The notes under the pieces: generated by a model
Database searches by the model: none
What the model saw: the letters and a program-made list of their open reading frames with translations, nothing else
What the model was told of the DNA's origin: nothing
NCBI GenBank assembly: GCA_048939995.1
Contig: JBHLOY010000032.1
Span: 1 to 12,353, forward strand
Direction: 5' to 3'
Length of the DNA stretch: 12,353 nucleotides
Source of the DNA: Promethearchaeota archaeon
GTDB lineage: Archaea; Asgardarchaeota; Lokiarchaeia; Sigyniarchaeales; SOKP01
Translations under genes and position numbers: made by a program
In this document: positions 5,422 to 10,230 of the stretch, piece by piece
How the letters are laid out: each line of letters starts with the position of its first letter
Position numbering within the stretch: the first letter of the stretch is position 1

Positions 5422-7398
5422 ATGGTAGAAACGCAGATTGAAGAGAAAAAATCTATTGATGAGATTAGAATATTTGTTGCAATTTGTCAATGAGGTATTA
5501 ATGTTGCTGAAATCATTGACACAAAAGCCTTAGCAGAATATTCAATGAAGTTACCTAATGTAGTTGAGGCATTAGATTATATATCATTATGTACCGAACC
5601 TGGAGCAGAATTTATAAAAGAAAAAATGCTGGAAGCTAACGCTAATCGACTTGTTGTAGCCTCTTGTACCCCTAAGACACACGAACCAGTATTCAAAAGT
5701 GTATTAGAATCGATGGGATTGGATTCATCATATTTAGAATTTGTGAATATCCGTGAACATGCAAGCTTTGTTCATCGAAACGATAAGCAAGGTGCCCAAA
5801 AAACTGCTGAAGATGCAATTAGATCTGGAGTGGCTAGAGCAGAAGTATTAGAAAAGATTTTAGTAAAAGAAGTAGATATTACAAAAAAGACTCTAATAAT
5901 TGGGGGCGGAGTAGCTGGATTAAGTGCTGGTATAGATCTTGCAGAAGAGGGATTTGAAGTTTTTCTTGTAGAAAAAAGCCCAACTATTGGGGGAAAAATG
6001 GCAATGCTTGATCGAACATTCCCAACAGATGATTGCAGCATATGAATACTGGGCCCAGTAATGTTACTATCTTCGAGAACTCCTGGTATGAATTTATATA
6101 CATATAGTGAAATCGAAGATATTACTGGATTTGTAGGGAATTTTAAGGTTAAAATTCGAAAAAAGGCGAGATATGTAAATAATGATTGTAACGGATGTGG
6201 TTCGTGCTTTGAAGTATGTCCAGCATACGGATACGATGAATTTAATGAGGGAATGAACCCTCGAAAAGCAATTTATTCATCGTTTGCTCAAGCTGTTCCC
6301 TCAATAGCTCAGATTGATATGACAAAATGCATCAAATGTGGGTTATGCCAAAATGTATGTGAATTAGAAGCGATTGACTTTGACCAAGAAGATGAGATAA
6401 TTGAAATTGATGTAGGTTCAATAATAGTTGCAACTGGTTGGGATGAATATGAACCTGAAACTGGCTATTTAGGCTATAATGTTTATCCCAATGTTATAAC
6501 TCAACTAAAACTTGAAAGGATGTTGGCCCCAAATGGTCCAACCATTGGTCATCTTGTACGACCATCCGATGGTAAAAAACCGAGAAATGTTCTTGTTATC
6601 CAATGTGTTGGATCTAGAGATTTAACCAAACAAACTTATTGTAGTGCTGGAGTATGCTGTATGATTTCTATTAAAAATACTAAACTCATAAAGCAACATG
6701 ATCCAGAAATAGATATAACTGTCGCATACATGGATATTCGAGCAGCTGGAAAAGACTATGAAGAGTACTTTACCGCTTCAAGAAAAGAAGGAATAAGATA
6801 CGTAAGAACTAACATTTCAAAGATTTACGAAGATCCAGAGACTCATAACCTTAAAGTAATTCTCCAGAATACTCTAGGCAATGCCAAATTAAAAGAGTTT
6901 GAATATGATATGGTTATATTATCGTGCGCAATGATTCCACCAAAAGGTATTGAAAAACTTCAAAAAGTATTGAAACTTGAGACAAGCCAGGATGGATTTT
7001 TTAAGGAATTTCATTCGAGATTAAATCCAATTGACACTAAAATACCTGGGATCGTTCTTGCTGGTGTAAGTCAAGGACCTAAATCTATTGCGGAATCTAT
7101 TGCCCAAGGAAGAGCTGCTGCATCATCTTTAGCACGACTTATGAGTAAAGATAAATATCGAATTCTATTAATTAGAGCAAACGTAGAAAAAGAAAAATGT
7201 GCAAAGTGTGGACTATGTGAGCTTAATTGTCCATATGAAGCAATCAAAATTGAATCTGATGGCGCTGAAGTAAATGAGATATTATGTAGAGGATGTGGTT
7301 CATGTTTAGCCAATTGCCCTTCTGAAGCGATTACTTTACGATATTATCGAGAGCCTCAATATGAAAAACAAATAGATGCAATATTAGAAGAGATATAG
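5422..7398 (+). CDS. hdrA: Heterodisulfide reductase subunit A-like flavoprotein, selenoprotein with 2 Sec (U24 at 5491-5493, U208 at 6043-6045), 658 aa
   Basis: ATG 5422, the ORF at 5545 and the ORF at 6061 share one frame, interrupted only by two TGAs. The contexts are RIFVAICQ-U-GINV (canonical HdrA RIGVxVCxCGxNI) and DRTFPTDDCSI-U-ILGPVM (canonical DKTFPTxDCSxCILxP). Also present are SCTPKTHE, VNIREH, the FAD motif IIGGGVAG, inserted and C-terminal ferredoxin CxxCxxCxxxC(P) motifs, and QCVGSRD...CSAGVCCM. Ends in TAG. Confidence 0.95.
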
Positions 7399-7411: not shown

Positions 7412-7870
7412 ATGGCTACTAAAAATGATGTTAAAATTCTGGCTTTTATGTGTTGGAAATGAGGTTATGGAGCGGGGGATATGGCAGGTACTATTCGAGC
7501 ACAATATCCTGCGACGATAAGACCAATTAGAATAAATTGTACTGGTAGAGTCACCCCCAGTCTTATAATGAGAGCAATAGGAAAAGGGGCCGATGGGGTT
7601 ATTGTTGCAGGATGATATGAAGGAGAATGCGATTATGAGACAGGAAACTTAGTTGCTGCTAAAAACGTTAAATATACTCAAGAAGTGTTAAAAACAGCAG
7701 GAATTTCCCCAGATAGAATTCAAATGTTTCATTGTAGTGCGGCTGAAGGTCAAAAGTTCCAAGAAGAAGTTACGAGAATATCTGAAATAATAGAAAGACT
7801 TGGTAAAAATCCAATAAATGAATCTCTCAATAAAGTAAAAGAAGAAAAAGGAAAAAAGCCGAAAGAATGA
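7412..7870 (+). CDS. mvhD: MvhD/VhuD/FlpD hydrogenase iron-sulfur subunit, selenoprotein with 2 Sec (U17 at 7460-7462, U68 at 7613-7615), 152 aa
   Basis: Manual translation: MATKNDVKILAFMCWK-U-GYGAGDMAGTIRAQYPATIRPIRINCTGRVTPSLIMRAIGKGADGVIVAG-U-YEGECDYETGN...RIQMFHCSAAEGQKFQEEV...LGKNP...KPKE. This matches the MvhD motifs CxxC, RxxCxGR, GADGVxxxGCxxGxC and SAAE, with TGA at two Cys positions. It is in frame with the ORF-track fragment 7685..7870. Confidence 0.95.
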
Positions 7871-7927
7871 ATCTTACGAGAAAAAAAATTAGTCGTGAGA
7901 TGACACACCATAAAGCAATGGTTTCGG
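7859..7927 (+). promoter_or_regulatory. Eukaryote-like (Lokiarchaeal-type) SECIS element
   Basis: Elements in order: ATGA (7867-7870), ATCTTACGA (7871-7879), loop GAAAAAAAATTAG (7880-7892), TCGTGAGAT (7893-7901; 9 bp, one G-U) and GA (7902-7903). A lower helix CCGAAA (7859-7864)/TTTCGG (7922-7927) closes it. It sits at the 3' end of an operon with four Cys-position TGAs. Folded by hand. Confidence 0.8.
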
Positions 7928-7931
7928 ATTT

Positions 7932-7960
7932 AACTATTTTTTAAAAAAATTTTTATAGTT
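7932..7960 (+). terminator. Candidate oligo-T terminator of the hdrA-mvhD transcript
   Basis: T6 at 7937-7942 and T5 at 7950-7954 lie just 3' of the SECIS, flanked by AACTAT/ATAGTT. Archaeal terminators are typically U-tracts. Confidence 0.4.
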
Positions 7961-8922: not shown

Positions 8923-10230
8923 ATGGGCAAAAATTTACTTTTAAATGCTGAAAACCAATTTTTAAAAGCAGAACAATTATCTCAAGCTAGACAATTTAAA
9001 AAAGCAGCTAAGAAGTACAATTCAGCTGGCCATACGTACCTCAAATTGGAAAATTATGAGAACGCTAAATATAGCTTTATTAATGGAGCAAATGCATTTT
9101 TAGAATTAGAAAAAATACAATCTAGTCTAGAATTACTTAGACTGGCGGGCGATTCGTCTATATTCTATGAACGCTATAAAGAAGCGGAAGAAATATTTAG
9201 AAAAGCTGTAGATTTTATTCCAAAATTAAAAAATATAGCAGATCGCAACGTTCAATATGTGCTTTTCTCTGTATTATCCTATTTGTGTTTATTCACTAAT
9301 GCAAGGCAAGAAGATGGTTTAAAATTTATTAAAAAAATACAAAATAAAATTGAGAGTACGTATTTTAAAGAAAGTTCATTAATAATCTTAGTTACGGATT
9401 TAACAATCGCAATACGTGATAAAAATCCTGCTTATTTAGAAAAAGTCAAGAATAATCTTCATAATTATAAACTGAGTGATGCCGAATTACTATTACTTAA
9501 AAAGATTCTATTTATGGCAAATATTCAGTTATCTTTGGAATCTGAAATGAATTTAGACAAAGACCTTTATACTACAAACGAAATAATTAATCTAAAAGTA
9601 AATATTAACACAACATCATTAGTGTCAGTGATTCAAAACCAATTTTATAATTTTATCACTGAGAAATTTAGCATAACAAAGCTTAATCTAACACTATCTG
9701 ATAATCTCAGTTCTAGTAAAAAACCAGCTATCCCGATTGATTTGGAAATTGGAAAAAGTTATGAGTTAGATTTTGTAATTAAGCCTCATTTTCAACTTGA
9801 CAATCCATTTATTGGGCCATTATCTCTTACATTTGAATTGAATGGCCTTTTAACTTTCATCTATGAAACAATTAAAATAATCCCTAATCTAATTCCACCT
9901 CCTCCATCATTGGAAGTATCTACAAAAAATTTGAGAACTCCGCTTATTGATCAGACATTCCCATTAGAAATACTGGTGCAAAATCAAAGTGAAGGTGAGG
10001 CTTTGGATGTAAATATTGATACAGAGTTTCCTGAACAGCTTAAAATTATGAGGGGAACAACTAATAAACAAATATATTCACTAAGACCAAATGAGGACCT
10101 TAAATGGGAAATAAATCTAAAACCAATTGAGGCAGGAGATTATATTATAAAGGTATTAGTTAAATTTAAAGATCCGGATCAAAATCTAATTGAAGAAGTT
10201 AAAGAATTTCCACTTTCGATAAAACTCTAA
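8923..10230 (+). CDS. Hypothetical soluble protein: N-terminal TPR/alpha-SNAP-like helical repeats plus two predicted Ig-like beta-sandwich domains
   Basis: The N-terminal Ala/aromatic helical periodicity is seen in FKKAAKKYNSAGHTYLKLENYENAKYSFINGANAFLEL. From about aa 205 the pattern is beta-rich, and a PPPP linker at about aa 325 precedes a BatD/DUF11/TRAP-beta-like domain. No signal peptide or TM is seen. Confidence 0.75.
   Translation: MGKNLLLNAENQFLKAEQLSQARQFKKAAKKYNSAGHTYLKLENYENAKYSFINGANAFLELEKIQSSLELLRLAGDSSIFYERYKEAEEIFRKAVDFIPKLKNIADRNVQYVLFSVLSYLCLFTNARQEDGLKFIKKIQNKIESTYFKESSLIILVTDLTIAIRDKNPAYLEKVKNNLHNYKLSDAELLLLKKILFMANIQLSLESEMNLDKDLYTTNEIINLKVNINTTSLVSVIQNQFYNFITEKFSITKLNLTLSDNLSSSKKPAIPIDLEIGKSYELDFVIKPHFQLDNPFIGPLSLTFELNGLLTFIYETIKIIPNLIPPPPSLEVSTKNLRTPLIDQTFPLEILVQNQSEGEALDVNIDTEFPEQLKIMRGTTNKQIYSLRPNEDLKWEINLKPIEAGDYIIKVLVKFKDPDQNLIEEVKEFPLSIKL

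Follow-up and report, generated by a model that had tools for sequence, protein, structure and literature searches.

A lokiSECIS-like element at the end of mvhD in a Lokiarchaeial genome and the shifting register of its stop codon

The hdrA-mvhD locus and its 3′ element

The window, the whole stretch of DNA analysed here (12,353 nt), is an entire contig (JBHLOY010000032.1) of the 3.75-Mb Promethearchaeota archaeon assembly GCA_048939995.1. It carries hdrA and, beginning 13 nt past its end, mvhD (also named vhuD). Reading frames were followed through TGA, and four in-frame UGA codons fall within the two genes. The nearest orthologous loci belong to Promethearchaeota/Promethearchaeia (Lokiarchaeia) assemblies, with protein identities of up to 89%, and the MvhD match contains two TGA codons in nearly all close orthologues.

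5422–7398, plus strand: hdrA, 658 aa, with FAD and Fe-S domains, in-frame UGA (Sec) at codons 24 and 208, and a TAG stop
7412–7870, plus strand: mvhD/vhuD, 152 aa, with a FlpD domain (PF02662) over residues 9–131 and a variable Lys/Glu tail
7460–7462, plus strand: UGA codon 17 of mvhD, in the context C-W-K-U, 408 nt upstream of the core UGA
7613–7615, plus strand: UGA codon 68 of mvhD, in the context A-G-U-Y, 255 nt upstream of the core UGA

Of the Sec machinery, the genome has SepSecS and a UGA-containing (Sec) SelD, both above the family cut-offs, together with full-length PSTK-like and SelB/EFSec-like genes whose matches lie below them. L7Ae-family matches number only two. A tRNA-Sec was not found with ARAGORN, RF01852 or a pattern search, which is no evidence of absence in an assembly where just nine tRNAs were called. 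Elsewhere in the window, positions 1–2371 of the minus strand hold a gene cluster with a probable alanine-racemase-like PLP enzyme, a RidA-like protein and split UxaA/altronate-dehydratase-like genes, all named by eye from the sequence. Positions 8923–10230 of the plus strand encode a 435-aa protein with a weak TPR match at the N-terminus, a likely beta-sandwich at the C-terminus and no confident family.

Pattern scans of the contig gave a single SECIS-like match, located after mvhD. The gene ends in CCG (7859–7861), AAA, GAA and TGA (7868–7870); this TGA, judged to be the true stop, lies about 20 residues past the FlpD domain, inside the Lys/Glu tail. The initial annotation had recognised it as the UGA of a SECIS core, and all the parts that it described are in place, including the 9-bp stem, the A8 loop and the GA at 7902–7903.

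7859–7863, plus strand: 5′ arm of the closing (lower, C) helix, CCGAA, doubling as the mvhD codons for P-K
7867–7870, plus strand: AUGA core of the SECIS, of which 7868–7870 are the mvhD stop codon
7871–7879, plus strand: 5′ arm of the main stem, ATCTTACGA, 9 bp with one G-U
7880–7892, plus strand: apical loop of 13 nt, G-A8-UUAG, with a conserved (A)G at its end
7893–7901, plus strand: 3′ arm of the main stem, TCGTGAGAT, pairing with 7871–7879
7902–7904, plus strand: GA(C), the 3′ half of the tandem G-A core
7907–7922, plus strand: third-arm hairpin, ACCAU / AAAGCA / AUGGU, on the non-bulged strand of a predicted three-way junction
7923–7927, plus strand: 3′ arm of the closing helix, UUCGG

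The lower helix had been given as CCGAAA/TTTCGG. It is present, as CCGAA paired with TTCGG, and its 3′ arm lies outside the coordinates first assigned to the element. A 19-nt insert separates the 3′ GA from the closing helix, and it contains a hairpin (7907–7911 with 7918–7922) that the initial annotation had omitted.

The sequence features of a lokiSECIS are found here: an AUGA abutting the stem, nine of nine stem pairs, an A8 loop with a terminal AG and, after the stem, a GA, for which AA may stand elsewhere. The folding z-score is -4.5 for 7867–7904 and -3.8 for 7855–7935. Among 67 distinct orthologous elements, 91.9% of the cells of the main stem are paired and eight of its nine pairs have changed on both sides; for the entire structure 91.3% of cells are paired, compared with at most 51% in slid controls. 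Invariant positions in this set are the TGA of the core, three adenines and the final G of the loop, and the GAC; the A of AUGA is present in at least 90% of it. RNAalifold on a MAFFT alignment recovered the main stem alone with the flanking helices out of register, and alignment-free tests were therefore used for the latter. The AUGA/GA core and the covarying stem support the eukaryote-like character proposed at the outset. An Rfam scan with E-values up to 5 matched no SECIS family, an outcome expected of a lokiSECIS. On this evidence the mvhD 3′ element is taken to be a real, covarying lokiSECIS. A search for a SECIS belonging to hdrA itself found none, and hdrA presumably shares the element after mvhD, in line with the single SECIS common to hdrA and vhuD described in PMC4989117.

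The loop measures 13 nt both here and in the nearest relative (locus L063), and 11 nt is the usual length among orthologues. In these two loci only, the U-GA at 7901–7903, within the 3′ half of the core, forms a second in-frame UGA. This codon arises solely through the 13-nt loop; a designed backup stop was considered for it and rejected.

Register of the mvhD stop among orthologues

The initial annotation had interpreted the fusion of stop and core as the way in which mvhD resolves the ambiguity between stop and Sec, and had proposed a conserved stop-in-core register. The register is not conserved. A TGA stop at the core (offset 0) is found in 15 of 67 orthologues, and a TGA 4 nt upstream in three. 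The remaining genes end in TAG at 5 nt (25 genes) or in TAA at 6 nt (one), 13 nt (13), 14 nt (four), 16 nt (three) or 17, 19 and 30 nt (one each). These counts include related genes and are not independent; the mvhD of the present genome itself belongs to a seven-gene clade in which every member has the core stop. Thus 52 of the 67 orthologues do without the fusion, and 49 use UAG or UAA 5–30 nt upstream of the core, avoiding the ambiguity altogether. The reading frame runs into the core in 17 of the 67, no more than the one-in-three expectation of chance, and translation past an in-frame core yields unrelated tails of 2–39 aa, often just Ile-Leu followed by TAA. What is kept is the location of the SECIS, which adjoins the end of mvhD throughout, 0–30 nt from the stop. 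The closing helix overlaps the coding sequence in many of these genes.

The frequency of change was estimated on a maximum-likelihood tree of HdrA C-terminal and MvhD core sequences from 61 loci, which excludes the MvhD tail and six loci short of upstream sequence. The core-stop state requires at least seven changes, all forced by well-supported branches, on this unrooted tree, where gains and losses are not distinguished; the stop-to-core offset changes 19 times. The state is clustered, with seven changes against a mean of 12.8 in shuffles. A single-base shift in an A-run separates the members of three sister pairs (L009/L011, L028/L026 and L020/L025). With the shift, Ile-Lys-Pro-Lys-Glu and the core TGA take the place of a TAA 13 nt upstream of the core, and Sec lies 273 nt from the core instead of 274 nt. 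As judged from these sequences, the conserved feature in mvhD is a SECIS abutting the gene end and not a stop that coincides with the core, and the survey indicates that the overlap is no special device in this gene.

Some of the loci carry unexpected labels. L036, labelled Kosmotogaceae bacterium, has a Loki-type hdrA-vhuD-SECIS nearly identical to the archaeal locus L047 and is probably mis-binned, and several records labelled Hodarchaeota, Odinarchaeota or Thorarchaeota are placed within the Loki tree.

Spacing of UGA codons and readings of the overlap

In the vhuU family (L110:1831–1983 (+), contig C17, and L115–L144) the stop is the core UGA at all 30 loci, 18 from a strict scan and 12 by eye. 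The Sec codon lies 84 nt before the core, and the last codons encode part of the closing helix. The stem or the loop is longer at several of these loci, and at L144 the AUGA is replaced by UUGA. Within the present genome the stop lies at the core in four of ten SECIS-bearing genes. A second vhuD paralogue (L112 near 2038; contig C21:23937) likewise ends at its core UGA, and two further vhuD paralogues have stops 5 and 22 nt upstream of the core.

The same genome contains short genes of other families. At L107:1546–2004 (+), contig C16, a protein of ~153 aa with no Pfam match contains a tandem UGA-UGA (H-A-D-U-U / G-C-U-U); a lokiSECIS lies ~125 nt downstream, and a paralogue is found on the minus strand of contig C11 (L106). 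Of 121 genomes of the order, 102 have homologues, which with few exceptions contain two TGA codons, and a SECIS is present at 30 of 30 loci examined. This protein is a candidate for an undescribed selenoprotein family, absent from the seven Asgard families of PMC11227280. A 66-aa single-helix membrane protein with a G-G-G-U-x-C motif (L114:1837–2037 (+), contig C36) has its SECIS 57–61 nt past the UGA. Its family is known from 10 genomes of one genus and ends in the core UGA in four cases, in a UGA 7 nt upstream in five and in TAA in one. A 37-aa zinc-ribbon protein (L109:1838–1951 (+), contig C17) ends in K-UGA-UAA, and 21 of 25 homologues are UGA-ended and four end in Cys. It is a candidate C-terminal-Sec micro-selenoprotein.

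The distances of UGA codons from the core fall into two groups. In four families the distance between a UGA stop and the core is always 0, 4, 7, 10 or 13 nt, and the presumed Sec UGAs lie at least 39 nt away. Sec insertion at 39 nt, the shortest distance seen, is suggested by the zinc-ribbon family, because its UGA lies 39–56 nt before the core and the four Cys-ending homologues lack a SECIS. Genes upstream of a SECIS avoid UGA as a stop: hdrA ends in TAA 32 times, in TAG 32 times and in TGA in none of 64 loci (a count that omits three loci where no long frame lies upstream), with 10 switches between TAA and TAG on the tree. The gene preceding vhuU has a TGA stop in none of 26 cases, compared with 12 of 114 downstream control frames. 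Given the general geometry of the ribosome, a boundary somewhere from 13 to 39 nt would be in keeping with a ribosome that covers and unwinds the element. The initial annotation had argued that a UGA near the SECIS escapes recoding. As a steric rule that appears general this holds for a zone, and the exact register is unnecessary. A spacing rule with stops at 0–13 nt and Sec at 39 nt or more may help the annotation of Asgard genes and the design of reporters.

These patterns suggest how the mvhD overlap could arise. Most likely, the lokiSECIS of the hdrA-vhuD pair directs Sec insertion at the four upstream UGAs, 255–2377 nt away. A UGA within ~13 nt of the core would not be recoded and would act as a stop, since the SECIS would be covered and unwound by any ribosome with that codon in its A site. 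The A-rich Lys/Glu tail of MvhD appears unconstrained, so one-base slips could shift its frame, after which the first stop of the new frame would be used: UAA at ~13 nt, UAG at 5 nt, UGA at 4 nt or the core UGA itself. The invariant core UGA would then be a backstop for one frame in three, which the present genome happens to use. Very probably, therefore, the overlap in mvhD is incidental, a matter of frame that is tolerated and not required. The closeness of the SECIS to the stop, never more than 30 nt, may itself be selected, and the fixed register of vhuU possibly reflects selection in that family.

An adaptive fusion, in which the register is selected and every termination event melts the SECIS and so damps Sec insertion upstream, would be in keeping with the recurrence of core stops in the genome, their fixation in vhuU and the overlap of the closing helix with coding sequence in many orthologues. 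It is nevertheless unlikely for mvhD, where the core stop is confined to 22% of orthologues, in-frame cores are not in excess, and single-base slips have repeatedly removed or created it. The register of vhuU is equally well explained by the closing helix lying in the last codons (V-G-L-G). The feedback that the initial annotation had attached to the fusion finds no support here: any such effect would be independent of a core stop, because termination 4–16 nt upstream would unwind the element too, and the exact register adds nothing to stops at 4, 5 or 13 nt. Changing the TGA to TAA, the experiment suggested there, would destroy the core G-A pair, so it cannot separate fusion from coincidence. 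The stop codons of the contig (nine TAA, one TAG and one TGA in 11 complete genes), counted correctly in the initial annotation, were also rejected as a sign of a special mvhD stop; TGA ends 15.9% of long frames genome-wide, and one TGA or fewer in 11 is the chance expectation (P = 0.46), which makes the tally uninformative.

Two readings dispense with a stop inside a SECIS. The case for a chance fold or a transcription terminator could rest on the several look-alikes given by a pattern scan of this AT-rich genome, on the lack of an Rfam SECIS match and on the failure of a Loki vhuU SECIS to function in Methanococcus maripaludis (PMC11881835). Compensatory changes, the invariance of the unpaired AUGA and GAC, and the presence of the element after every UGA-containing orthologue and its lack behind the Cys-type homologues in a different family make a chance fold very unlikely, and lokiSECIS elements are known to escape standard SECIS tools. 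The terminator was rejected, given the covarying stem and the absence of any terminator-like match at the element. Decoding of the core UGA as Sec, or read-through to a longer MvhD, is compatible with a frame that stays open for 10 codons to the second TGA and then runs to a TAA ending at 7933. It is the least probable of the readings and was also rejected: the tails past the core are not conserved, the core lies beyond the FlpD domain, most orthologues stop earlier, and the second UGA depends on the unusual loop.

A third arm and the relation to known SECIS elements

The hairpin in the 19-nt insert recurs among the mvhD orthologues, where 89.9% of its cells are paired and two of four counted pairs have changed on both sides. 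Its mean folding energy is -3.2 kcal/mol, compared with -0.8 kcal/mol in shuffles. Across six locus sets the position is occupied in 142 of 180 elements against 20 expected from shuffles, and hairpin and closing helix occur together in 81 of 180 against three expected, with none of 39 in the tandem-UU family. The sequences of the arm differ between families, and its loop is rich in GCA/GUG.

Kink-turns that carry an extra helix in their non-bulged strand are known as k-junctions (PMC4005666, PMC10573300). At the level of sequence, the invariant GA and GA of the Asgard element would supply the tandem G-A and A-G pairs with which the NC helix of such a junction starts. The element resembles the k-junctions of the TPP riboswitch and DUF-3268 (PMC4005666, PMC10573300) in its tandem G-A/A-G, in a canonical helix that precedes the loop on the 5′ side and in an additional helix inserted into the strand opposite the bulge. 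Unlike them, it has a 5′ loop of 4–7 nt and a 3-nt linker past the GA, and the likeness is one of sequence pairing. No link between k-junctions and SECIS was met in the literature searched, in which PMC11227280 is the sole paper with both terms, at one occurrence. The arm does not appear in the main text of PMC4989117, whose supplementary figures S4 could show it, or in the text and text supplements of PMC11227280, where the model is two-stemmed.

The pairing data lean towards a working Asgard SECIS larger than the published model. It would be a three-way, k-junction-like RNA with a functional third arm, perhaps serving a stand-in for SBP2. The footprint of this RNA would set a sharp boundary somewhere between 13 and 39 nt, with UGA as a stop inside it and as Sec beyond. 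In eukaryotes the minimum spacing between UGA and SECIS is ~50 nt, and the Asgard boundary would, if real, lie below it. A third arm could also explain why short SECIS models miss these elements and short constructs fail, and it bears on the origin of the eukaryotic SECIS before SBP2, a protein reported to be absent from Asgard archaea.

The overlap of stop and AUGA, whose possible novelty had been raised, is already published, and mvhD is one more instance of it. Mariotti 2016 (PMC4989117) describes VhuU.1, in which the AUGA motif doubles as the stop codon, and notes that many Loki selenoprotein genes are UGA-ended, where the closeness of the SECIS would preclude recoding, the same reason of proximity. 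Huang, Xiao and Zhang 2024 (PMC11227280) state that UGA stops of Lokiarchaeia selenoproteins often overlap the AUGA motif. The mvhD element resembles the lokiSECIS of PMC4989117 in its AUGA, 9-bp stem, A-rich loop ending in (A)G, GA and position as one element after vhuD. Shared with that account are also an AUGA used as a stop, UGA stops tolerated through proximity, an HdrA stop that is always UAA or UAG in Loki, and an element that standard SECIS tools miss. It differs in the gene (vhuD here, vhuU as the named example there) and in the loop (13 nt here, 11 nt there), and the lability of the vhuD register is quantified here and was not there.

With the Asgard type I eSECIS-like elements of PMC11227280 the mvhD element shares an AUGA_GA core, an upper stem, unpaired adenines, a lower stem and use by both hdrA and frhD; the model there consists of two stems and an internal loop, with an apical loop of variable length, and the mvhD element has a third arm. 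The eukaryotic type I SECIS, with a kink-turn core bound by SBP2, differs in having a longer upper stem and in matching Rfam, and it neither overlaps a stop nor serves a polycistronic pair, as the mvhD element does. The two have in common the AUGA/GA core, the apical adenines and action at a distance from the 3′ side.
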